Origin: Candidatus Hodarchaeum mangrovi
GTDB taxonomy: Archaea; Asgardarchaeota; Heimdallarchaeia; Hodarchaeales; Hodarchaeaceae
NCBI GenBank assembly: GCA_016839515.1
Contig: JAEOUE010000254.1
Span: 1 to 64,000 of the forward strand
Length of the DNA stretch: 64,000 nucleotides
Reading direction: 5' to 3'
Of this stretch, positions 11,547 to 29,576 are shown piece by piece. Position 1 is the first letter of the stretch. Each line of letters begins with the position of its first letter. A program made the translations under genes and the position numbers. The notes beneath the pieces are model-generated. The model did no database searches, was not told where the DNA came from, and saw only the letters and a program-made list of their open reading frames with translations.

Positions 11547-12308
11547 ATGTTCCGTCTTGATATAATAACCAAAGCAGGTATACTAGTTTTCTCTCATTCA
11601 TTCATTAATCCTTTAAGACTTGAAGAGAACAGCGATCAAGATATGCAGGCAAGTTTAATCACAGCTGTCTTAAATACTCTAAAAGAGACCCAAGGGGAAA
11701 CAATCACCGCCATACACCAAGTTGGATATAAATTACTTCTTTATGAAGGAATCCTTACCTTTGGTATCTTAACGATTTCTGGTGAGGATGAATCAAAGCT
11801 GCATAATTTTCTTCGGAGCATTGTTTTAAAATTTGAATTAATGTTTACCTACGAATTACATATAGAATCAGTGATCAATCGTACTACCTTCGAATCATTT
11901 AGGAAAATCATTAAGAATATGTATGAAGATATGATTGGGGTAGAATTTGATACATTGCATAAACTCTTAGAAATATTAAAATATTCTAATATATCCAACC
12001 TTGTTGTCTTTGAAACAAATTTTTTTCACCCCATTTTAACCAGTATAGTTGATCATTCGATTGATTTTCCTTTAGATAAAATTATTCGTATTTTTCGTGA
12101 GATTGACAATCTGAGTCTGAGTGAAAAAAAGGATAATGTAACTTGTTCTTTTGATTTGCAATCAATTATAATTCATGGTTTGAAGATTCGACAACATTGG
12201 ATTGCCTGCTTTTCTAGTCCAAATCATGTAAGCAAATTCATTATTCACAATGAAATTGAAGAAATTAAGAACTCATTGCTTTTTCCCGAAGCATTGTCAG
12301 TTAGTTAA
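11547..12308 (+). CDS. Longin-like domain protein with C-terminal roadblock/profilin-like alpha/beta domain
   Basis: LDIITKAGILVFSHSF hairpin, helix ASLITAVLNTLKE, beta meander, helix FLRSIVLKFELMF match longin topology. Confidence 0.6.
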   Translation: MFRLDIITKAGILVFSHSFINPLRLEENSDQDMQASLITAVLNTLKETQGETITAIHQVGYKLLLYEGILTFGILTISGEDESKLHNFLRSIVLKFELMFTYELHIESVINRTTFESFRKIIKNMYEDMIGVEFDTLHKLLEILKYSNISNLVVFETNFFHPILTSIVDHSIDFPLDKIIRIFREIDNLSLSEKKDNVTCSFDLQSIIIHGLKIRQHWIACFSSPNHVSKFIIHNEIEEIKNSLLFPEALSVS

Positions 12309-12388
12309 CCATTCAACTAGCTTTATATGAAGGAAGATTTACATTTAATTAAAGTAAAAGTAATATTTGATATGAGGGACAAACTGTT

Positions 12389-12979
12389 TTGGATGAATTT
12401 TATACTTCATCAAAAGACTTAACAATAAAGATTGCTATTCTTAGTCATCCAGATAATAAAGTCACCCTCTTACTTGAAAATTTAGTCAATACTTACCCTA
12501 AAAAAAGTACTTATCAATATTTTTCTTCCATTTCTGTTAATATTGCTGGTTTACGGTTAGATGAGCTCGATTCTTTCACTAATCGGAAAGTAAAATTATT
12601 TTTAATCCAACCAGTTAGCAATCTCTTCACTGACAAGTTAAATAGACGATATTATGAAACATACGGGGCAGTTATCTTCTTTTCTAAAAATAATCATGAT
12701 GAATTTGTCGCTGCAAAAGCCTTTTATGAAAATTTCAGGAAACTAGCCTCAAGTGAAACTCATCCTGTAGCTTTTGTTGAAGTTCTAGATGGAACTGAAG
12801 AATCCATCTCTAAAATTTTAACTGAACCTGAAATTATAGAGGATGCTCCATATAACTTCTATTATGCTATTAATATGCAAGATTACAAAGGATTTAGACA
12901 GATCTTGGAATTTATCACTAGGCAATTCCTAACAGGTCAAGAAGTTTTGAGAATTATTTCGATGCCCGATACCACTTAA
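12389..12979 (+). CDS. Degenerate Rab/Ras-fold protein (pseudo-GTPase)
   Basis: Collinear with the Rab-like GTPases in this window (IKIAIL, VKLFL, RRYY.TYGAVIFFS...EF, PVAFV), but G1, G3, G4 and G5 are all lost. Confidence 0.6.
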   Translation: MDEFYTSSKDLTIKIAILSHPDNKVTLLLENLVNTYPKKSTYQYFSSISVNIAGLRLDELDSFTNRKVKLFLIQPVSNLFTDKLNRRYYETYGAVIFFSKNNHDEFVAAKAFYENFRKLASSETHPVAFVEVLDGTEESISKILTEPEIIEDAPYNFYYAINMQDYKGFRQILEFITRQFLTGQEVLRIISMPDTT

Positions 12980-13507: not shown

Positions 13508-14089
13508 CTATTTTTTTTTCATCCTCTCTTTAACTTCAGCAATAATATTATCTATCTCATCAGTCTTCTCCTTTCTTTCAATTGTCCTCTTTGATTCATT
13601 ATTTAAGATAGCTTTTTCTTGTGTAGAAAGAGCACCTGCTTCAGAACCTTTAATCTCCAAGTCTCTCCCAAGGATTTTTGATAATTTCTTTAAAATTAAA
13701 TTCCTTATTGGGAAGGAATGAATTTTCTTTTTATTAAAAATATCATTCACAAAAGACTGAAATTTGGCTTCTTTTTGTGATGAATTTGATACAATCTTTA
13801 CTAATTCGTCCATATTAAGCTGGATTATTTCTAAAAATTCTATTACAACTTCTATATCTAATATTTTGCCTAATAGCTCTCTTTTTTTTTCTATAACTTG
13901 TCTACTTGTATCATAATGCGATTTATTTAATTCATCAACAAATTCTCTCTCTAATTCTTCTTGTTTAATCTTTAACTTTTGTAATTCTCTATTGTATGAT
14001 TCAAGAAATACATTCAGTGATTTGGGGAATTCTGTTATCGAAATCTTTTTTCTTGAAAAGAAGCTAAAAGAACTCATCTTGCAGAACAT
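13508..14089 (-). CDS. Helical coiled-coil protein; candidate divergent ESCRT-III/IST1-like
   Basis: N-terminal SSFSFFSRKK, long helical hairpin, C-terminal DEIDNIIAEVKER helix. Confidence 0.4.
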   Translation of the reverse strand: MFCKMSSFSFFSRKKISITEFPKSLNVFLESYNRELQKLKIKQEELEREFVDELNKSHYDTSRQVIEKKRELLGKILDIEVVIEFLEIIQLNMDELVKIVSNSSQKEAKFQSFVNDIFNKKKIHSFPIRNLILKKLSKILGRDLEIKGSEAGALSTQEKAILNNESKRTIERKEKTDEIDNIIAEVKERMKKK

Positions 14090-14359: not shown

Positions 14360-17300
14360 GTGAGACTATTATTTCATTTGAAATATTGGGTTTTCAAAGA
14401 TCTCTTTAATTTCACTTTGATTATCAGTTTGGTCATCCTTCCATCCTTTAATTATAATATCCTATTTCCGTCTCTAAATTTCATTGAAGGACAGAATGAG
14501 GAACTTTCAAACCAAAGCTCTGCTATTGATGTTAACTCGGTGAATACCGATCCATATTTCATTTTACACTCATTTCAAACCCCAAAAATCCTTTTTATTA
14601 TTGAAGATAAAAATAATCCACATCCACAGCTGGATATACCATTCTACAATTATATGACAGTGAACCTAAGCTTTTCAGTTTCTTATCATGATGATCAAAA
14701 TCAAACTTACCCTTCTGAGATTGATGCTATTGTAATATCTCAAACAATCATTGATGAAGGAGTTGTCAACAATCTTAATGCTAGTACGATTCCAATATTA
14801 ACAATGGAACCAGGTACACAAAATGAATTTCAATTAGGATCAAATTGGGGGATTGTTACTTCAGTAAATTCATTTTATGGGATAAATTCCTCTCACTATA
14901 TAACTAATGGCTTACCAGATCAATCATCAGTTCAAATTTATAATACAACTGGGAATTTTGGATATTTACTTGGTTTTAATGCTGTTCCTATTGGTTGTCA
15001 AGTTAATGATTTAGCAAAACCTTCATCTTTAGCAAATCATAAGTGGTTTCGTTCATTAATTACTTTAGAAAAGGGAGAAAATGACTGGTTATTAAAACCT
15101 GCCCCTGAACGAAGAGTATTTTGGGGTGCACACCAAGGAAATCTATTGAATCAGGCAGGATGGAATCTCTGGGAAAGGTCGTTAAAATGGATTTTATATG
15201 ATGATGATCCTGGAAGCGCTTCAATTACAGTAAATGTTAAGGATAAATCTTCAAAAAACGTAGAAAATGCTAAAGTAACATTAATTAATTCAACTGATTA
15301 TTCAAATTATTGGACTCTTAATACTACTGTTACTGGCACCGTAACTTTTACAGATATACCTTTTGATGATTATAACATTATAGTTGAATATCAAAAATCA
15401 ATAAATGATTCACTAACAATGTTACCAATTGTCTCTGAACGTACTTTTCAACGAACTGCAAGTTTCACCTATAGTATTCAGATCCCTTTGTATTTGGACA
15501 ATGAACCACCACAGATATTAAATACATGGTTCAATTCATCAGAATATTCGTTTTATGCAGATATCACTGATATTATCGCAATTTCAGAAGCCTTACTTAA
15601 CATTACAGTAATAAATAAAACTTCACCCTATGATATTATCATAAATACTAATTTTTCAATGGTTCTTAAAACAGGTATTACTTATTTTAATGATACTGCC
15701 TTAGATACTCTAGATGGTACAAATGTAAAAATTTACTACAATATCATTGCTACGGATGAGGCAGGAAATACACGTGTTTCAACAGTTGAAATATTTGATT
15801 TAGAAGACCCCAATCCTCCTCAAATTCATTCTTATGGAGCAAACGATTTTAAAAACGGAACTATCTTATTCTGGGCTAATGTTACTGACGATGGTGAGGT
15901 TGAGTCTGTTACTTTACGAATAAATAATACTTTTCTAAGTATGTTCAAAAATCAATCTAATTATTGGATAGTAAAGAAGAATTTTAATTACGATCTCGTT
16001 CTTAACTATACGATTTGGTCTGCCATTGATACATTAGGAAATGAGAACGGGTCAAAATTGCTTACTATTGATCCTTTATCTCAATTAATGCAAGTTGGGG
16101 ATAATCAAGCACCTCAAATTTGGGAGATCATGAGTACATTTACTTCTCATGTGGAAGGTTTTGTAGATTTCTCTGCACGAGTACAGGATTGGAACATTTA
16201 TCAGTCTCAAGTTAACGTCAGTCAAGTAAAAATTATTTTCGAAATAAATGGAGAAAATGTAACTTATTCCATGTTGAATCCTGGTGGTGGAATTTTTTAT
16301 TCCTTTTCCTACCTATTTAATTACAATGATTCAGTAGCCTTCTGGATTCAAGCGACCGATCTAGCAGGTAATCTGAATCAAGGAAGTAAACATGGTCCTT
16401 ATCCTATTTCTGATAATACTATACCCTATGGTATTTATTGGGCAAAGGAATGGGGGAATGGAACTGTAGATTTTTATTCCCAAGTGGTTGACTGGCCAGA
16501 AAATCAAACGAGTTCTATTTTAAATTATACTACAAATTATCCTTTTTCTTGGATCAGTCTACCGATGGATAAAATCAATAGTACCTTTTTCCATAAAAGA
16601 ATAGATACTTTTGAATATTCTGAAAATAATATTTGGTTTATAATTTCTGCAACAGATGCTTATAATAACAAATATCTACCATCCCTAGATGAAGCCAAGA
16701 GTATCATATTAACGGATGTGGTTAATCCTTCCATTTATTCTTCAAAAATTCACAATTCTACAAGTATCGATTGTCAAATTATTCTCGAGCTTCGAGCTAT
16801 AGATTCATTCGGACTTCCATATCCCTATACTTTAAACAATACATATTACTTAAACTATTCAGTCAATGGGAACCCGATGATCTCAGTAATTATGTCATAT
16901 GTCGATTATGGTCATTTTTCTTATACTTTAAACTTCTCATATTTAGATAATGTCTATTTATATGCTTGGGTTAATGATTTTTCTGGAAATCAAGGGTCTT
17001 GGTCAAAAAATATTACTATATTAGACTTTTCTGCTCCCAAAATTACAAATTATAATGGAACTGTTGATCAAACGGGGATATTTAAATTATGGGTAGAGAT
17101 ATTAGAGAATGGTAGTGGATTGGTAAATCAAAGAATTATTCTTTATGTAAGTAGCTCTATTTTCTATGAAACTTTAGTGAATAATGGAACGAAAAATATC
17201 TATGTTTATGAAAGAGGGGGATTTACACCACAAATGACCTTTGTTTTCTTTGAAATTGAAGCTTCAGACCTAGCAAACAATATCTATATAACACCATATT

Positions 17301-19189
17301 CAAGAGCTCCTATTGAAGACAAAATTCCTCCCCATTATGATGATTTTAGTATTATTCCTCAACAATCTTATCTTAACCGAACTCATGTGAATCTTGATTT
17401 CTGGATTGAGGCTTTTGATTCATTTGGAATATTAACGTCAGTTTTTGTAAACATTAGTTATGAAGACCATTATTCTAACTATACTCTTCTTAAATTTGGA
17501 GATCTTTATAAAACTTCGTCTAGTATAATAAGAAACGCAAATACCTCTTACTCCTTTGAGCTCGTTATTGTTGATGGCGTAGGGTTAACCAATCGAACAG
17601 GTTGGGTGGATTTCGTCACTTTACCATTTAACCAAGCTATTATTACAGATTTTGGAATCGAATATTCACCAACAGAAACTAATCAAATTAGAATTTGGAC
17701 TATTGTTAATAATTCAAAGGATGACGTAAACCTTTACCTTAATGCATCAAAAAACGACCAGATAATAGTATCGCATGAATTAATGATATTCAATGATTCT
17801 CATTATTATTTTGAGCTGAATAATGTAAGCTATCAAAGCAATATTACATATGAAATAGTAGTTGTAGATAACGGTGTTAGAAATGAATATTATTTGCCTA
17901 ATATAATTGAAGATATAATAGTGGTCGAAGATAAATGGGCTCCCAAATTCATTGGATTCGATTACGATCCAAATTATGGCAATAATTCTATATTAATATG
18001 GGCTAGTGTCTTTGAAGATGGAGCAGGGATTGAAAACATCACAATTGTATATGATTTTACCTCTGGTGGTAGTGGAGGAAATCTCCAAGACTGGAAGATA
18101 GATAGTTTGACTCAAATCAACCAATCGTATTATACAATCGTCATTCCAATTACAGGTTCGGGTAAATTTCAATTTAAGTTAATTGCATATGATAAAGCAG
18201 GAAATAAAAACCCTCAAAGTTACTTTACAACATATCCTATTCCAAATATTGAAAGTGGAATTGATCCGCTATTACTCTTAATTGTCTTCGCTTTAACAGC
18301 CTTTATCTTTATTAGCGCAATCGTAGCTGGAAATATCTACCGGAGAAAGAAACAAGCTCAAGAATCAAAATTAAAAGAGTTAAAGACAAAATTAAATATT
18401 CCACTAAATATTTACACACTTCTTGTAACTAGCGCTGCAGGAATTCCAATTTTTGATATGACAAATGTTCTTTATCAACGAGACGAATCCTTAAACACCA
18501 CACTTTCAGGTGTTTCAGTTAGCATCGATACTTTTCTTGATTCTTTTCAGGCTGATTTTATAGATCAATTTCAACAAGTTCCTCAGCATGAACGGAGCGA
18601 ATTTGTTCGAATTAGTGTCATCGAACAAGCTCAAGTAAAGATCTTAATTGGTGCAAGTCAAAATTATAGAATGTTTATTTTCTTCAAGGAGAAACCATCA
18701 GCTTTTGCAAGGAATATTGCCTCTAAGATTATCAGGGAAATTGAGGAAAAATTACCTCTTAAGGATTTGGGGATAATTGATGATAGCCTATTGAAACCTC
18801 AAATTAAAAGAATTATAAATTCTCATCTCCCCTTAACCCTTTTAACACCCTTTTCAATTGATCCAGCAAAAATTAAATTTTATGAAGCTAAAATCAAAGC
18901 TCATGAAACGTCACCTATATCCATGAAGGCATTGAATCTATTAAAAAGAATAATTGTCACCCGTACTTCGCCAAATCTCCTAAAATCAGAGAATAAAACT
19001 CAATTAACCTTTTACGATAAAAATTTAGCAAATCTTCAAATTTTAATGGGAGTAGAATTTTTATACTCTGAAGTAATTGTTATTTGTAAAAAGGCTCTAA
19101 ATGCTTCTGAAGAGCTCATGTATGAAGCTCTCTGGATAGGAGCTTCCCCTTTAGTTAACTTACTTCACGAACCTAAATTTGGTGTTTAA
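14360..19189 (+). CDS. Large single-pass surface protein: signal/anchor, alpha/beta domain, Cna-B-like domain, ~9 Ig-like repeats, TM helix, cytoplasmic longin-like domain
   Basis: Repeated DxxPPxI...A.D.AGN units, many NxS/T sequons, TM LLLLIVFALTAFIFISAIVAGNIY followed by RRKK, then NIYTLLVTSAAGIPIF...TLSGVSVSIDTFL. Confidence 0.75.
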   Translation: MRLLFHLKYWVFKDLFNFTLIISLVILPSFNYNILFPSLNFIEGQNEELSNQSSAIDVNSVNTDPYFILHSFQTPKILFIIEDKNNPHPQLDIPFYNYMTVNLSFSVSYHDDQNQTYPSEIDAIVISQTIIDEGVVNNLNASTIPILTMEPGTQNEFQLGSNWGIVTSVNSFYGINSSHYITNGLPDQSSVQIYNTTGNFGYLLGFNAVPIGCQVNDLAKPSSLANHKWFRSLITLEKGENDWLLKPAPERRVFWGAHQGNLLNQAGWNLWERSLKWILYDDDPGSASITVNVKDKSSKNVENAKVTLINSTDYSNYWTLNTTVTGTVTFTDIPFDDYNIIVEYQKSINDSLTMLPIVSERTFQRTASFTYSIQIPLYLDNEPPQILNTWFNSSEYSFYADITDIIAISEALLNITVINKTSPYDIIINTNFSMVLKTGITYFNDTALDTLDGTNVKIYYNIIATDEAGNTRVSTVEIFDLEDPNPPQIHSYGANDFKNGTILFWANVTDDGEVESVTLRINNTFLSMFKNQSNYWIVKKNFNYDLVLNYTIWSAIDTLGNENGSKLLTIDPLSQLMQVGDNQAPQIWEIMSTFTSHVEGFVDFSARVQDWNIYQSQVNVSQVKIIFEINGENVTYSMLNPGGGIFYSFSYLFNYNDSVAFWIQATDLAGNLNQGSKHGPYPISDNTIPYGIYWAKEWGNGTVDFYSQVVDWPENQTSSILNYTTNYPFSWISLPMDKINSTFFHKRIDTFEYSENNIWFIISATDAYNNKYLPSLDEAKSIILTDVVNPSIYSSKIHNSTSIDCQIILELRAIDSFGLPYPYTLNNTYYLNYSVNGNPMISVIMSYVDYGHFSYTLNFSYLDNVYLYAWVNDFSGNQGSWSKNITILDFSAPKITNYNGTVDQTGIFKLWVEILENGSGLVNQRIILYVSSSIFYETLVNNGTKNIYVYERGGFTPQMTFVFFEIEASDLANNIYITPYSRAPIEDKIPPHYDDFSIIPQQSYLNRTHVNLDFWIEAFDSFGILTSVFVNISYEDHYSNYTLLKFGDLYKTSSSIIRNANTSYSFELVIVDGVGLTNRTGWVDFVTLPFNQAIITDFGIEYSPTETNQIRIWTIVNNSKDDVNLYLNASKNDQIIVSHELMIFNDSHYYFELNNVSYQSNITYEIVVVDNGVRNEYYLPNIIEDIIVVEDKWAPKFIGFDYDPNYGNNSILIWASVFEDGAGIENITIVYDFTSGGSGGNLQDWKIDSLTQINQSYYTIVIPITGSGKFQFKLIAYDKAGNKNPQSYFTTYPIPNIESGIDPLLLLIVFALTAFIFISAIVAGNIYRRKKQAQESKLKELKTKLNIPLNIYTLLVTSAAGIPIFDMTNVLYQRDESLNTTLSGVSVSIDTFLDSFQADFIDQFQQVPQHERSEFVRISVIEQAQVKILIGASQNYRMFIFFKEKPSAFARNIASKIIREIEEKLPLKDLGIIDDSLLKPQIKRIINSHLPLTLLTPFSIDPAKIKFYEAKIKAHETSPISMKALNLLKRIIVTRTSPNLLKSENKTQLTFYDKNLANLQILMGVEFLYSEVIVICKKALNASEELMYEALWIGASPLVNLLHEPKFGV

Positions 19190-19769
19190 ATCTTTGACAA
19201 TTATTGTAAAGATTGTACTTCTAGGAGATGGTTCTGTTGGTAAGACTACTTTACGTGAACGATTCATGGGTAGGGGATTTACAACCAGTTATTTACCTAC
19301 TTTAGGAGCAGAATTTGTCTCAAAGGTCCTTCCAATCACCAGACCAACCAAAACAATATCATTGCGTTTTCAGATATGGGATTTGGCAGGGCAACCAACC
19401 TTTAAACAAATCAGAAAATTATATTATCGTGATTCGGTAGGATTAATTCTTGTTTTCGACATTACTCGTCCAGAGTCTCTTTACAATTTAAAAACATGGT
19501 TAAGTGAAGCAATAACTTATTCAGGGTCTAAAAAATTATCTGTTGTCATTTTGGGTAATAAGATTGATCTGAGAGAATTAGACTGGGTAAAAGCCGAGGA
19601 AATTACTCAAACTTTAAATGAAATTAATAAATTTGACACTTTAGATTCTCCTGCTATCTTTTATCAAACATCTGCCAAAACAGGGGAGAATGTGAATTTA
19701 GCATTCGAAACTATAGGAAAAAAAATTCTCGATAGGTATGAACAGCTAAATTATTTTGATGAAGTATGA
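19179..19769 (+). CDS. Rab-like small GTPase
   Basis: GDGSVGKT, PTLG, WDLAGQ, GNKID, TSAK; start overlaps the upstream stop. Confidence 0.93.
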   Translation: MVFKSLTIIVKIVLLGDGSVGKTTLRERFMGRGFTTSYLPTLGAEFVSKVLPITRPTKTISLRFQIWDLAGQPTFKQIRKLYYRDSVGLILVFDITRPESLYNLKTWLSEAITYSGSKKLSVVILGNKIDLRELDWVKAEEITQTLNEINKFDTLDSPAIFYQTSAKTGENVNLAFETIGKKILDRYEQLNYFDEV

Positions 19770-19787
19770 AGATTTTTAAACAAGAAG

Positions 19788-20018
19788 GTGTGTACAAAAT
19801 TAAGTTGGATGAATTTTACAATGCAATCCTCAGACTTGAGTTACAAAGGAAAAACATGCGAAAGTTGTGCTTACTTAACAGAAAAGGCTCCGATTTATTA
19901 TAAAGAGCATATTACTGAAAAAGAAGCCGGTTTATGTCGATTATATATATTAAAGGACCATTTTGCTATTATGTTGAAGAATGAAATTGCTTGTCCAGAA
20001 TTTATTTCCAAAGAATAG
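19788..20018 (+). CDS. Small Cys4 putative metal-binding protein
   Basis: KTCESCAY...GLCRL...IACPEF; lies between the two GTPase genes; true start probably an internal Met. Confidence 0.6.
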   Translation: MCTKLSWMNFTMQSSDLSYKGKTCESCAYLTEKAPIYYKEHITEKEAGLCRLYILKDHFAIMLKNEIACPEFISKE

Positions 20019-20043
20019 AAGATCTTATGAATAGGAGAATATT

Positions 20044-20601
20044 ATGGCTATATTGGCTAAAGTTTTACTTTTAGGAGATGGTGCAGTTGGTAAAACGGCC
20101 TTAAGAGATTCTTTTCTTGGACGAAGTTTTTCAACCAATTATATACCAACATTGGGTGCAGATTTCATCGCAAAAACCATTACACTTGAGGGGAGAGAAC
20201 TCAGATTTCAAATATGGGATTTAGCTGGACAACCGGCATTTCGTGATGTTAGGAAGCTTTATTATCGTAATACAGCTGGAGCATTCCTAGTTTTTGATTT
20301 AACACGTTTGGAGACATTAACAAACATATCTACATGGTTGACTGAACTTGCGATTAATGCTAATACTCCTAAGGTTTCAATCGTAGTGATTGGAAATAAA
20401 TTAGATCTATTAGAAAAAGAAATTGACCTTGAAAATGAAATTGAATCAATTTTGGAGACCATAAAATTAAAACATCTAGCAAACATTGATACACATATAA
20501 CATACATCGAAACATCAGCTAAAACAGGCAAAAATGTCCCTGATGCGTTTTTTAAATTGGGAGAAGGGATTTTACAACTATATGTGAATGAAAATTTTTA
20601 A
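20044..20601 (+). CDS. Rab-like small GTPase
   Basis: GDGAVGKT, PTLG, WDLAGQ, GNKLD, TSAK; AGGAG upstream of ATG. Confidence 0.93.
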   Translation: MAILAKVLLLGDGAVGKTALRDSFLGRSFSTNYIPTLGADFIAKTITLEGRELRFQIWDLAGQPAFRDVRKLYYRNTAGAFLVFDLTRLETLTNISTWLTELAINANTPKVSIVVIGNKLDLLEKEIDLENEIESILETIKLKHLANIDTHITYIETSAKTGKNVPDAFFKLGEGILQLYVNENF

Positions 20602-22445
20602 CTTGTTTCAACCACTGGTAGACGAATTAGAAACGTTGCACCTTGATCTAATCCCTCACTACTTACTTTTAATTCTCCCTGATGTTCCGTTATTATGATA
20701 CGAGACAGATATAATCCTATTCCAGTCCCAGTGATTTTTTTTGAATATTTCGATGGAAATGTTACGAATGGTTCAAAAATAGTTTCTAGCTGATCAGGAG
20801 CTATTCCTGCACCGTTATCATTAATAGAAATTTCCACCGAATCTTTATATTTATAGCACTTAAATTTAATTTCTCTTTTCTTCTCATCAGTGTGATTGAT
20901 AGCATTTTCTATAAGATTATTCAAAACTTGAGTAATTCTGTCCTGATCAATCTTTACGAAAATTGGAAAGGTTTCATCACAGGTATAGATAAATTGAGGT
21001 CCTAAAATGTCTTGATGTGGTCTTATAGCTTCTTCAAGGTATTCCTTGATACTTATGATTTCGAAGTTAAGAGTAAAAATTCCACGTTCAATTTTGGTTA
21101 ATTCACTTACTCCTGAGACTAATCTATTCAATCTCTCAATATTCTTTTGAATTATCTGAAAGCTTTTAGATCTTTCTTCTTCTGAGAGGGTAAATAAGCG
21201 CTTTCCTAAGAGATCGATATATCCTTTAATAATAGAGAGAGGTGTACGAAGTTCATGACTAGCTAAACTAATGAACTCAGCTCTCCGCTGTTCTAAATCT
21301 CTTCGTGCTTCTTCAGTACGTTTTTCAGCAGTAATATCGCTTATTACTCCAAAAGATCCAATAATTCGATTTTCTGAATCCAATAAAGAAGAAGCTGCAA
21401 CACGTGTAATCACCTCATCGCCGTTTTTATGGACAAACACAAGTTCATAAGCACCAGCAGACTTTTCGTGACGTTCTTTATTTACTCTAACAAATGTACT
21501 AATTGAATCTTGAGAAATAAAGTTGATTACGTTTATACCAATCATTTCATCTTGGGAGTAACCCAACATTTTCTCTATTGCAGGATTGACATAAATTGTG
21601 ATGTTATTAATATCAGTAAGCCAGATTCCCTCACTCATTTTAGTAATTAGTTTACGGTAACGCTCCTCACTCTCGACTAATTTATTTTCTGCAAGAATTC
21701 GCTCTGAAACATCAGATAATGTCACAACAAGATGATTAGGTTCAGTTTGAAACGCATTTACTTCAAAAACTCCTTTAATTCTTTCGTCTTTATAGGTGAT
21801 AATTTGATTTCGCCATGGTTTTCCATTTGCTGCCACTTTTAGAAAAGCATCATGAGCTTCTTCGCTAATTTTGGGGAACAGATCTTCAATACCTTTTCCA
21901 ATATAGAGATCTGTTTCTATTCTTAAAATATTATCAGCGGCTAAATTTGCTCCAGTGAAGATTAAAGTTTTATCATCTGGTAATAATTCGAATAATAACA
22001 TTCCTAAAGGTGAGGAGGCCCAGATATTCCGGTACCGTTCTTCTGAAAGAAATAATTCAGCTTCTGCTCTCTTTTTAGCTGTTATATCTCGACTCACTCC
22101 ACGGTACCCTTCAAATTTATCCTCATGAAGTATAGGTACTGCACTTGTTTCTAATACAATTTTATCTCCATGCTTATGATTAAAATCAGCTTCAAGATTA
22201 TCAATAGGTTGAGTTAATGATATATGTTTGTCAATCCTATCCATAATTGCTTTCATATTATCATGCATTAAAAAAAAACTGAATTGTTGGCCTACAATTT
22301 CTTCAGGGAGATATCCAAGGATTTTTTCTACTTGAGGACTTGAATAAGTAAATTCCCCAATTTTATTAATTTCCCAGACCCAGTCATTGATTGTTTCAAC
22401 TAATGATCGAAATCTTTCCTCAATATTTTTAGTTGTTTTAGTCAT
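20598..22445 (-). CDS. Cytoplasmic multi-PAS sensor histidine kinase
   Basis: Three PAS/PAC units ending RDIT/SDVS/SDIT; H box ASHELRTPL; NLIENA; DNGAGI; GTGIGL. Confidence 0.93.
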   Translation of the reverse strand: MTKTTKNIEERFRSLVETINDWVWEINKIGEFTYSSPQVEKILGYLPEEIVGQQFSFFLMHDNMKAIMDRIDKHISLTQPIDNLEADFNHKHGDKIVLETSAVPILHEDKFEGYRGVSRDITAKKRAEAELFLSEERYRNIWASSPLGMLLFELLPDDKTLIFTGANLAADNILRIETDLYIGKGIEDLFPKISEEAHDAFLKVAANGKPWRNQIITYKDERIKGVFEVNAFQTEPNHLVVTLSDVSERILAENKLVESEERYRKLITKMSEGIWLTDINNITIYVNPAIEKMLGYSQDEMIGINVINFISQDSISTFVRVNKERHEKSAGAYELVFVHKNGDEVITRVAASSLLDSENRIIGSFGVISDITAEKRTEEARRDLEQRRAEFISLASHELRTPLSIIKGYIDLLGKRLFTLSEEERSKSFQIIQKNIERLNRLVSGVSELTKIERGIFTLNFEIISIKEYLEEAIRPHQDILGPQFIYTCDETFPIFVKIDQDRITQVLNNLIENAINHTDEKKREIKFKCYKYKDSVEISINDNGAGIAPDQLETIFEPFVTFPSKYSKKITGTGIGLYLSRIIITEHQGELKVSSEGLDQGATFLIRLPVVETS

Positions 22446-26799: not shown

Positions 26800-27897
26800 T
26801 TATCTGTAAGGTTTTTGAAAATTTAATAAAAGTTTACCCCAGATTCTCATTACTCTTTCATCCCTATTTAAATCTGTTAGCGTTTCATCATCCCCTACAA
26901 ACGTATCTAGTAGCATAGCAGCACTCAAAGTGTTTAGTCGTGATTCATGATACTGAAGAAGCTCTTCTATTAAGAGTTTTTTTATTCCAGGAGACATATC
27001 TTTTAATATAGCAAATGGGGTCGAAAGAAATTTACGCTGAAAATCTTTGACAAGAAGTAAATCTGAAGTAAACCCAGTATCAATAGCCATAAAGTAATTT
27101 TTTCCAAAAATAAATCGCAATTTATGAATATAGGTCGTACCAAATGAAATATATTTGGGCTTTGAATCAAATAATGACTGAATGAATCCAACAATCGCGG
27201 AGAAAAATCCAGCCCAAATACCCTGATTTGTCAAGTTATAAGAAAAAGGAATTTCAAAACCATCAAGATTCGCAATTATTGCCCATCCCTGTGTCTGAAT
27301 TAGGCTAGTGCGTTCTGCATGCTTTCTTAGATAATAATGAAGAAGTAATAATTCCTGAAAAGATAAAATACTAAAATTACTACCCGCAATACCAACTATA
27401 TTGTCTAAAAGATTGTTATCTAGATATCTCTCATTAATATCAAGAATAATGTCTCTAAAGTGTTGTTCTATTGCCTCTTTGGTTTCTTTATCAGCATCAG
27501 TTACTAGATTGCTATATAAAATGGAAGCCTGACCAACCATCACAGCTCTCATAATTTGTTTGATATCTTCAGGGAGGCCTCCTTCAGCATCAATCAATAA
27601 TAATGTAACTGCGGGATCTGATATAATTAGAAAAAATTTTTCTTCCAAGGAGACAATGAAGATTTCAGAGGATTTTAATCCTGAATGAGCTGGTCGGTCA
27701 AAATTAATTGATGCAATACCTTCAGTTCCAAAAAGTTCTTTTCCTAATTTTCCCAATCCCATCAAAAAATTTGAAACGACCTCTAAAAACTCATGACTAG
27801 GATTTCCATAAGACCATTTTACTTCTGTTCCTTCAATAAATAAAGCCCAGTGTTCTTGAACCCTCGCAGTTACTCTTTGCATTTCCTCACAGCTCAT
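26800..27897 (-). CDS. Putative tandem longin-like domain protein
   Basis: Two units: WALFIEGTEVKWSY..VVSNFLMGLGKLGKELFG..IASINF and WAIIANLDGFEIPFSY..IWAGFFSAIVGFIQSLFDSKPKYISF. Confidence 0.5.
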   Translation of the reverse strand: MSCEEMQRVTARVQEHWALFIEGTEVKWSYGNPSHEFLEVVSNFLMGLGKLGKELFGTEGIASINFDRPAHSGLKSSEIFIVSLEEKFFLIISDPAVTLLLIDAEGGLPEDIKQIMRAVMVGQASILYSNLVTDADKETKEAIEQHFRDIILDINERYLDNNLLDNIVGIAGSNFSILSFQELLLLHYYLRKHAERTSLIQTQGWAIIANLDGFEIPFSYNLTNQGIWAGFFSAIVGFIQSLFDSKPKYISFGTTYIHKLRFIFGKNYFMAIDTGFTSDLLLVKDFQRKFLSTPFAILKDMSPGIKKLLIEELLQYHESRLNTLSAAMLLDTFVGDDETLTDLNRDERVMRIWGKLLLNFQKPYR

Positions 27898-28148: not shown

Positions 28149-29576
28149 TTAAAAAGATGGTTGAGGAATCTTTCTACGAGCACCTCTTTTCTCAAGATCT
28201 ACGATCACTTGACTAAATTCTCCTTTAAGTTCAGCTGGAAGTCGAGAAGGATGTTTAAATCCTGATTCACGATCTAAAGCATATGCGTATAAGAAAGTTT
28301 TGAAAGCAGTTCCCATAGGATAAGTTACAATAGACATAGGAATTGTTGAAAATATAATAGCAACTATTCCGATAACAAATGCACCTTCTACTGTGGAAAA
28401 GACTAAATATCCTACATAGGCTCCAGTGGCGCCCCATAACACAAAATTAATGATGTTAAAAAAGAACATTGCTAATCCAAAACCTGTTTCGCCAACCATG
28501 AGATCCAACCAATTATTCCAAACAATTTTAGCTGAATCGCGAATTGAATCTCTTACACCCTTCTTTTTAACTACAATTGCAGGTAGTGTGAAGTAAGTAA
28601 AGAATCTATATAGACCTATAATTATACTTACTATTACTGATGTAATTAGAAATAAAAAGACTGTAAATATCTGTTCATTCCGTCTTTTTCCTGTAGTAGT
28701 AGCTGATCGCCGTGCTCCACGTCCAAGGACTCTCGTAATCATTTCTAAAGTTGCCCTGATGATACCAAACCAAAGTAAAGGAGATAAAACCTGTCGTACA
28801 TCATTCCATGCAGTTTTTAAACTGGGATCTTCTTTTCGATACCAATCAAATGCGTAAGAAACAATAAATCCACCAATGATATAATATAACCCAAAATAAA
28901 CTATTAAATAAATATATTCAATAAAAAGACCTACAAATGAACCTAATTCAGATAATTCTACTGATCCCTCAGTAAATACTCCCCAACTATCATATATTTC
29001 TAGAAAACTGAAACCCATAATCATCCCAGCAAATATTGTAAAGAGAGCGACTATAATAGGAGCAATCAACAATGCTTTTTCTTCAAGAACTAAGCGAGCA
29101 GCAAACTCAACAAATTTTCCAGCTCTTCGCAATCTACGTTGGTTCCATATAGCAAATAATAAAAGGAGAACCCCAAAAATGAGAACTACATAACCAACAA
29201 GAGCAATGGGAGCTAATAAAGAAATAATTATTCCAATCCATATCATTACCCCAGGAATTAGAAATGACATGAATAATACAACAGGAGTAGCTAAATGACG
29301 CATTAATTGTAGTATAATCCATCCTAAAATAAGACACAATACAAAAAAAATCACTAATGCCAATAGTAGGTATGGTATACCTTGTGAAAGAAAAGGAATA
29401 ATAGTTCCTAGTACTATTAAGATTGAATCAAATTCTGCAGGATATTTAATGATTATAAGATCATAAATGGAATAGATTCCAAATCCATAAAGAACTAGTA
29501 CCAAAAGCAGAAATAAAAATAGAGAAAACTTTCCATGATTTGCAGTTTTAGTTTTTGACATAATTTTGAACCTCAT
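28149..29576 (-). CDS. Multi-pass membrane protein, choline-transporter-like (CTL/SLC44/Pns1)-like
   Basis: About 10 TMs; RRLRRAGKFVEFAARLV..LLIAPII; GGFIVSYAFDWY; FFTYFTLPAIVVKKKGVRDSIRDS. Confidence 0.6.
   Translation of the reverse strand: MRFKIMSKTKTANHGKFSLFLFLLLVLVLYGFGIYSIYDLIIIKYPAEFDSILIVLGTIIPFLSQGIPYLLLALVIFFVLCLILGWIILQLMRHLATPVVLFMSFLIPGVMIWIGIIISLLAPIALVGYVVLIFGVLLLLFAIWNQRRLRRAGKFVEFAARLVLEEKALLIAPIIVALFTIFAGMIMGFSFLEIYDSWGVFTEGSVELSELGSFVGLFIEYIYLIVYFGLYYIIGGFIVSYAFDWYRKEDPSLKTAWNDVRQVLSPLLWFGIIRATLEMITRVLGRGARRSATTTGKRRNEQIFTVFLFLITSVIVSIIIGLYRFFTYFTLPAIVVKKKGVRDSIRDSAKIVWNNWLDLMVGETGFGLAMFFFNIINFVLWGATGAYVGYLVFSTVEGAFVIGIVAIIFSTIPMSIVTYPMGTAFKTFLYAYALDRESGFKHPSRLPAELKGEFSQVIVDLEKRGARRKIPQPSF

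Follow-up and report, generated by a model that had tools for sequence, protein, structure and literature searches.

Genes for a large surface protein with a predicted cytoplasmic longin domain are linked to one branch of Rab-like GTPases in Hodarchaeales

Asgard archaea encode dozens of Rab-like GTPases together with longins, and both the pairing of regulators with GTPases and the access of these GTPases to membranes without a lipid anchor are open questions (PMC10933270, PMC4915359; here and below, cited papers are drawn on for individual passages). Asgard longins, longin-GTPase fusions and a Roadblock-Rab-DENN operon have been described (bioRxiv 10.1101/2020.10.19.343400). For strain MK-D1 it is stated that GTPases and longins as a rule do not share an operon, which makes it difficult to match one to the other (PMC10933270). 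A longin-GTPase pair is, in contrast, on offer in the 64,000-nt stretch of Candidatus Hodarchaeum mangrovi analyzed here (assembly GCA_016839515.1, contig JAEOUE010000254.1, positions 1 to 64,000; "the window"), where the gene for a 1609-aa surface protein with a predicted longin fold in its cytoplasmic tail is followed on the same strand by genes for two Rab-like GTPases (Table 1).

Several eukaryotic Rab regulators share the predicted fold of the tail, namely the TRAPP core (TRAPPC4/Trs23, TRAPPC1/Bet5 and sedlin; 2ZMV, 3CUE, 2J3W), Mon1-Ccz1 (5LDD) and CPLANE Fuzzy/Inturned (7Q3D). They resemble it in the long first helix with a conserved outward face and in being tied to Rab-type GTPases, and differ in that here the longin sits behind a transmembrane (TM) helix and a ~1300-aa ectodomain, with identities of 5-13%, and this unit has no second longin or TRAPPC3-like subunit. 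The SRX domain of SR-alpha with SR-beta (1NRJ, 5CK3; Z 7.0-8.1 against the tail) likewise combines one longin and one small GTPase, one of them membrane-anchored, but the anchoring is reversed, since SR-beta bears the TM helix there, and the GTPases here are Rab-like. Asgard longins are also associated with small GTPases, and the Loki longin 8YQG matches the tail at Z 8.7; the Asgard longin and Roadblock proteins described in the passages concerned (10.1101/2020.10.19.343400; PMC10933270) are, in contrast, soluble. The actinobacterial conservon (CvnA kinase, CvnB Roadblock, CvnC, CvnD GTPase) and the Group 1 Rup loci are operons that join a membrane protein, a Roadblock/longin-type module and a small GTPase (PMC4316618), and by analogy the present locus likely works in a similar manner. 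It departs from the conservon in that the surface protein has no kinase domain, a longin rather than a Roadblock is fused to the membrane protein, and the GTPases are Rab-like rather than MglA-type. None of the passages that full-text literature searches brought up has a longin joined to a TM helix and a giant ectodomain, although supplements may list such architectures; the words 'longin' and 'receptor' are absent from the main text of PMC12962969.

We consider the feature at this locus real and well supported, and read it as a probable new form of the longin-small GTPase platform, in which a large surface glycoprotein would supply the anchor and the linked GTPases belong to one dedicated Rab-like branch; 'receptor' and 'GEF' are hypothetical labels. 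Conservation of the gene linkage had been set beforehand as a test, and the linkage proved to be conserved, to one GTPase branch. Among 30 core genes of the surface-protein family (receptor genes below) at the loci mapped, 17 have a Rab-like gene within 0.5 kb (15 downstream, two upstream; 17/17 on the same strand, in 15 genomes), and three more are tandem paralogues inside GTPase-linked clusters. The other ten have no linked GTPase; seven of these are cut upstream by a contig end, one has an assembly gap, and two have both flanks intact. Counted by genome, the linked pair is present in 15 of the 17 genomes of the genus that have a core receptor. The 29 small GTPase genes of H. mangrovi include three with a TM-longin gene no more than 1 kb away; these occur at two loci and are the three branch members. 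None of the other 26 is within 3 kb of such a gene, the nearest being 3.7 kb away.

In a quick tree, from which two partial GTPases were left out, a single branch separates the 20 linked GTPases from 27 others (Shimodaira-Hasegawa-like approximate likelihood ratio test 99). A profile of these 20 returned, within the order, 34 matches above 240 bits; apart from its own 20 rows, 14 were new. When 13 of these 14 were added to the tree, all 13 fell in the branch with support 80; this enlarged tree left out two partial GTPases, six long-branch rows from H. mangrovi itself and one frameshifted copy. Six of the 14 new branch members lie beside a receptor-family gene (one of the six is frameshifted), two lie beside a tail remnant, and six have no recognizable receptor nearby, one of these last being upstream of a gene for a secreted DUF2341 protein without the tail. 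The branch also has its own switch signatures: Pro40 is found in 20/20 linked members against 5/25 others, Pro73 in 20/20 against 7/25, and Arg74 never against 15/25.

The linkage occurs in two genomic contexts. At the main locus, opposite-strand genes for an HGD-D dehydratase and two short-chain dehydrogenase-like proteins are inherited together with the receptor and GTPase genes as one block. The second context consists of ATP-binding cassette transporter genes, with the GTPases upstream and the dehydratase gene absent, and is independent support for the linkage. Across 15 pairs, tail distances correlate with GTPase distances (r 0.76; partial r 0.57 after removing the dehydratase gene; 0/5000 permutations, a result that is overstated because kin are not independent). 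The second pair of H. mangrovi is nearest to the second pair of another genome (G057) for both proteins, as would fit an old duplication of the receptor-GTPase pair.

Both GTPases of the window match Pfam Ras (E 1.4e-39 for GTPase 1 and 5.2e-42 for GTPase 2), keep G1-G5 and the catalytic Gln (GDGxVGKT, PT, WDLAGQ, NKxD, SAK), and are 48% identical to each other within the same branch. They also appear to carry RabF-like motifs. In a PDB profile search the best solved relatives were Thorarchaeota Rab (7EZB), then Rab7, Rab11 and Rab2. The initial annotation had remarked on a missing C-terminal prenylation cysteine and read it as a hint of membrane recruitment; there is indeed no Cys at all in either protein, but such an absence is general to archaeal Rab-like proteins (PMC4915359) and is therefore not evidence for recruitment of this pair. 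We use the term Rab-like because, as in other archaeal members, the prenylation cysteine is absent.

The 282-aa tail was modelled with AlphaFold2 on a 28-row alignment. The model (predicted local distance difference test, pLDDT, 84; predicted template modelling score 0.81) has a juxtamembrane helix, a longin-order core and a helical subdomain, with the elements E24-31 E36-41 H49-77 E90-96 E99-105 E109-115 H121-137 H148-162 (E, strand; H, helix; tail numbering). Between residues 24 and 162 the topology is strand-strand-helix-strand-strand-strand-helix-helix, which is the longin order and not the Roadblock permutation (as defined in PMC3747258). In a fold search of 48,161 solved chains, 11 reached Z>=8 and all are longins; the best is TRAPPC4 (2ZMV; Z 10.2, root-mean-square deviation 3.2 A over 120 residues), and the others include Sec22, VAMP7, the Loki longin, sedlin, AP-3 sigma, CPLANE and SR-alpha. 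No longin sub-type stands out. The first Roadblock appears at rank 24 (Z 7.4). The tail is thus predicted to fold as a longin domain; this too had been made a test in advance, and the modelled fold is that of a longin (pLDDT 84, 11/11 rows at Z>=8). The longin-like pattern previously noted stands as to fold, while its end moves from nt 18760 to about nt 18844, at the third helix.

By sequence, the tail profile matched no longin in Pfam or the PDB, none of 28 tails matched a longin Pfam family (one gave Robl_LC7 at E 0.1), and a Fuz_longin_1 search of the H. mangrovi genome did not match the surface-protein gene. Foldseek returned no row at E<=0.001 (best 2.3e-3), with longins and Roadblocks mixed in its list. 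Atlas neighbors of the tail at 0.83-0.87 have Fuz_longin_1 in 22% of members, which we treat as a lead only. Conservation across 67 tails is highest in the core of helix 1 (0.67). This helix is 29 residues long, and its outward face is conserved at 0.51, against 0.36 for helix 2 and 0.34 for helix 3, with S56, G57, D63 and Q70 on that face at 0.72-0.88 (tail numbering). Longins use helix 1 both to bind GTPases and to dimerize, and a long helix 1 goes with dimerization (PMC3747258).

The 1609-aa product has the features of a surface glycoprotein (its glycosylation predicted) that crosses the membrane once in a type I-like orientation and carries the predicted longin domain in its cytoplasmic tail: it has an N-terminal hydrophobic segment, one internal TM helix, basic residues after it and sequons outside. 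The one TM helix followed by RRKK, as first described, is the single strong hydrophobic helix of the protein. The sequon richness also held up, with 52 N-x-S/T in the whole protein, 39 of them in aa 381-1300 where 14.8 are expected from composition; the tail has three, against 1.7 expected. The N-terminal stretch, likely a signal peptide or anchor as had been proposed, is present but weak in this copy, and several homologues have stronger N-terminal hydrophobic helices. For the domain that follows (aa 63-287) there was no Pfam or PDB match and the model is unreliable (pLDDT 45); it may resemble class I glutamine-amidotransferase-like domains. A Cna-B-like domain (aa 288-345) is suggested by PF13620 (E 2.9e-4) and SpaA (E 6.4e-4), both below cut-off. 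The figure of about nine repeats was borne out when each repeat was scored against a hidden Markov model of the other eight: for six of the nine none of 200 shuffles reached the score, and for the rest 1, 5 and 6 of 200 did, with boundaries set by eye from motifs. The repeats are probably Ig-like, and Ig-family Pfam matches are faint (Big_7, E 0.036). No ligand-binding domain was identified in the ectodomain by Pfam and PDB searches or in the N-terminal domain model (pLDDT 45).

The distribution of the tail was surveyed by whole-genome profile searches. Close homologues carry Hodarchaeales or Heimdallarchaeota database names. A single query found the tail in 19 of 83 genomes of the class, all in the order of the host, and a profile found it in 44 of 400 genomes of the phylum, where out-of-order matches are weak save one; a scan of 1.84 billion representatives gave 76 tail matches. 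A TM helix stands directly ahead of the tail in 59/59 proteins long enough to test. The ectodomains (~1200-2500 aa) differ while the tail is kept: they are of the ~1600-aa type as here, of a ~1900-aa type without detectable ectodomain similarity, or of a 2200-2500-aa type with extra N-terminal parts, one protein of which carries DUF2341. The family is modular, with a constant inner module and a changing outer part. H. mangrovi itself has six TM-plus-tail genes, one of which shares the ectodomain (E 5e-186) and has a distant tail.

Some side observations concern the same family. Further TM-longin surface-protein subfamilies occur at loci L051-L058 and L110 and on the H. mangrovi contigs C23, C217 and C344, and in one subfamily the TM-longin gene is followed by a conserved ~310-aa gene whose product starts with a longin-like pattern and is a possible partner subunit. 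At three loci in three genomes (L032, L040, L041), two different receptor paralogues stand in tandem with one or two branch GTPases; these paralogues are candidates for longin heterodimers. The module also decays: the loci L120 (G065:C39), L121 (G055) and L131 (G062:C12) show tail remnants beside branch GTPases and a frameshifted branch GTPase beside a receptor gene.

The surface protein likely docks GTPases at the membrane, because its tail is a predicted longin and its gene is kept linked to one GTPase branch. We put at about 0.55 the probability that the tail, as a membrane-anchored longin platform, directly docks or regulates the neighboring branch GTPases, in any outside-in or localizing form. 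What we observe is the protein architecture, two GTPases with G1-G5 intact, a conserved linkage, and linked GTPases of one branch; docking by the tail and signalling across the membrane are what we infer. In such a mechanism helix 1 of the longin would offer its outward face to a GTPase, in the way known from TRAPP, MglB and SRX complexes, and this docking would hold the GTPase switch at the membrane, beneath the glycosylated stalk. When the variable ectodomains are engaged or clustered, two longin tails might then pair, as homodimers or as heterodimers of tandem paralogues, and so form the usual dimer platform and alter which GTPase is held or its nucleotide state. The tail could act as an exchange factor, a hydrolysis helper or a plain effector of the GTP state, plain docking being the least demanding. 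The Cys4 mini-protein encoded between the two GTPases would be an accessory subunit that travels with the receptor gene.

A number of observations weigh against direct contact. The ten receptor genes with no linked GTPase, two of them with intact flanks, count here, as do the six of 14 newly found branch members without a receptor beside them. The two genomes of the sister family have the receptor and no branch member at >240 bits. At distant TM-longin loci a small GTPase lies within 1.5 kb in only 2 of 20 cases, one among nine loci (convergent and outside the branch) and one among 11 (56 bp downstream, same strand). The HGD-D dehydratase gene, which is unrelated, is near the receptor at 14 of the loci mapped; synteny at the main locus is partly genus-level inertia, and physical linkage alone yields co-duplication and correlated distances. 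The split into helix faces was made by helical wheel, not from model coordinates. Sec22, VAMP7 and the sigma and mu adaptins, to which many of the top fold matches belong, have main partners other than Rabs.

The tail might instead adapt something else (a coat, SNARE-like, cytoskeletal or Roadblock/longin partner) and anchor or sort an adhesin, its GTPase genes being co-regulated or inherited neighbors with no contact. SNARE and adaptin longins do score as high as GEF (guanine nucleotide exchange factor) longins (Z 8.4-9.2), the synteny of the genus reaches metabolic genes, either partner occurs without the other, and most distant TM-longin genes have no GTPase neighbor. We nevertheless find this explanation somewhat doubtful, given a link to one GTPase branch that is always on the same strand, in two contexts and in both orders. 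One distant TM-longin gene, at L130, has a branch member 78 bp downstream, and the dehydratase gene faces the opposite way and is missing from the second context. Contact might also serve delivery, in that a GTP-bound GTPase takes the tail as its effector to place, move or shed the glycoprotein (e.g. into protrusions or vesicles) without any outside-in signal. The analogy is SR-alpha, whose monomeric longin holds a GTPase on its top face (PMC3747258) and whose SRX chains match the tail at the Z scores given above; the lack of an identified ligand-binding domain would suit it as well. A long helix 1 is, on the other hand, associated with dimerizing longins, and swapped ectodomains fit sensing or adhesion roles, so that we hold delivery to be distinctly unlikely. 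Least probable is a folliculin/SMCR8-type GTPase-activating subunit that gives an arginine finger. It would draw on the conserved Gly and Pro of the strand 1-2 loop (G34 99%, P36 96%), on Arg110 (90% conserved) and on described Asgard longins with a GP motif and an arginine finger (PMC12290439). The motif in the 67 tails is, however, G-[VLI]-P (G-x-P), not GP; Arg110 opens strand 5, just past a short turn, and gives way to Lys in 6%; and the SMCR8/C9orf72, Lst4 and NPRL2 chains rank 22-34, under other longins.

Direct docking or regulation by the tail need not mean nucleotide exchange. The most far-reaching form would be true transmembrane receptor-GEFs in Hodarchaeales, in which variable glycosylated ectodomains paired by contact or ligand bring about, beneath the membrane, a TRAPP/Mon1-Ccz1-like longin dimer that recruits and activates a dedicated, unprenylated Rab-like GTPase; we judge this unlikely. 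A GEF role is weaker than the initial annotation implied, because the tail lacks the length of a DENN module and a lone longin is usually insufficient for catalysis. About 113 aa follow the longin, against the 400-500 aa of a DENN module in all with cDENN/dDENN (PMC3747258), there is no DENN match in Pfam, and a DENN module was rejected. Longin platforms mostly become catalytic only with a partner longin and further components (PMC3747258); no second longin gene is present in this unit, and tandem receptor paralogues occur in the three genomes mentioned. If true, the receptor-GEF reading would place an outside-in pathway from adhesion to small GTPases, and a pre-prenylation route for Rab-like proteins onto membranes, in the closest prokaryotic relatives of eukaryotes. 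The locus names a concrete pair for assay, a soluble 282-aa tail and two expressible GTPases of ~190 aa, with the 26 paralogous GTPases of the same genome as specificity controls. Hodarchaeales strains have been cultured and carry membrane protrusions (10.1101/2025.02.26.640444), and localization is therefore testable in cells.

Table 1. Features of the surface protein-GTPase locus and of associated genes. Coordinates are window positions unless a locus or contig is named.
Feature	Coordinates	Strand	Remarks
Surface-protein open reading frame (ORF)	14360-19189	+	1609 aa, GTG start
N-terminal hydrophobic stretch	14360-14470	+	hydropathy peak 1.77 at aa 18-36; weak
Conserved N-terminal extracellular domain, aa 63-287	14546-15220	+	begins beta-alpha-beta; 38-44% identity among 10 homologues
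Cna-B/carboxypeptidase-regulatory-like beta domain	15221-15470	+	PF13620 E 2.9e-4, sub-cut-off
Nine ~100-aa beta-rich repeats, sequon-rich stalk	15473-18244	+	repeat hidden Markov model test, sequon count
TM helix aa 1304-1322, then RRKK aa 1328-1331	18269-18352	+	Kyte-Doolittle 3.04
Cytoplasmic longin domain (predicted), aa 1350-1495	18407-18844	+	model, fold search; long conserved first helix
C-terminal, mostly helical subdomain, ~113 aa	18848-19186	+	pLDDT 73-96 per block
Rab-like GTPase 1, longest ORF	19179-19769	+	196 aa, from TTG 19179; likely start TTG 19194
Cys4 mini-protein, longest ORF	19788-20018	+	76 aa, from GTG 19788; likely start ATG 19821
Cys4 mini-protein (CxxC...C...C)	19821-20018	+	4 invariant Cys in 6 homologues
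Rab-like GTPase 2	20044-20601	+	185 aa
193-aa helical, lysine-rich protein	13508-14089	-	divergent from surface-protein gene
~158-aa protein	L032:5136-5612, L037:6872-7348, L040:6063-6539, L041:12900-13376, G000 C148:17694-18188

The four ORFs first annotated are all present on the + strand at the coordinates given, and two of their starts were revised. The stop of the surface-protein gene had been thought to overlap the start of GTPase 1; homologues begin at residue 6 of the GTPase 1 ORF, and the likely start is therefore TTG 19194, 4 nt past that stop, with GGTG 9 nt upstream. Homologues of the mini-protein begin near ATG 19821, which gives 65 aa and a 51-bp gap in place of the 18 bp proposed; the 25-bp gap ahead of GTPase 2 is as described. 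Two sequencing runs, which may be the source sample, contain low-depth fragments 99% alike, one of which (19097-19489) crosses the junction between the surface-protein and GTPase 1 genes with no difference. A scan for sigma-70 promoters and terminators was discarded as evidence, with counts at shuffle level (36 vs 35.8; 2 vs 2.8) and a model unsuited to archaea.

The four-gene order is peculiar to this genome; most relatives have the mini-protein gene upstream of a receptor gene instead. Family searches gave no match for the mini-protein, whose four Cys make it likely metal-binding. It has 18 matches in 15 of the 83 genomes of the class, all in this genus. Ten of them lie immediately upstream of a gene that shows homology to the receptor, and three are upstream of a cut-off gene whose product looks secreted; of the others, one is at the end of a contig, the one in this window is between the GTPases, and three have different surroundings. 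The gene thus follows the receptor, not the GTPases. The 193-aa protein, found in 10 of the 83 genomes and usually beside the mini-protein or receptor gene, has no Pfam or PDB family match. By eye it looks like ESCRT-III, a likeness that the searches do not support: it was missed by Snf7 in its own genome (where two other genes matched) and by the Pfam and PDB searches.

Other genes near these loci deserve mention. (i) A conserved ~158-aa protein is encoded just past the receptor-GTPase cluster in several genomes and gave no family match. (ii) A three-PAS histidine kinase gene (20598-22445, - strand) is convergent to GTPase 2, the two stops overlapping by 4 nt; among the loci mapped, only this genome has it inserted so as to separate the GTPases from the dehydratase block, and in the relatives mapped it is not beside the GTPase. 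(iii) Some 1.4 kb upstream of the surface-protein gene, a gene pair (11547-12979, + strand) encodes a 253-aa longin-looking protein and a 196-aa protein weakly similar to small GTPases with no G1 motif; it is not beside the receptor in the relatives mapped. (iv) A 475-aa protein (28149-29576, - strand) scores above cut-off (E 3.8e-12) for PF04515, the plasma-membrane choline transporter family, whose known members are mainly eukaryotic. (v) A 365-aa protein (26800-27897, - strand), without a Pfam match, is kept in the same gene block in relatives and has two paralogues in the genome; its pattern suggests tandem longin/Roadblock-like domains.

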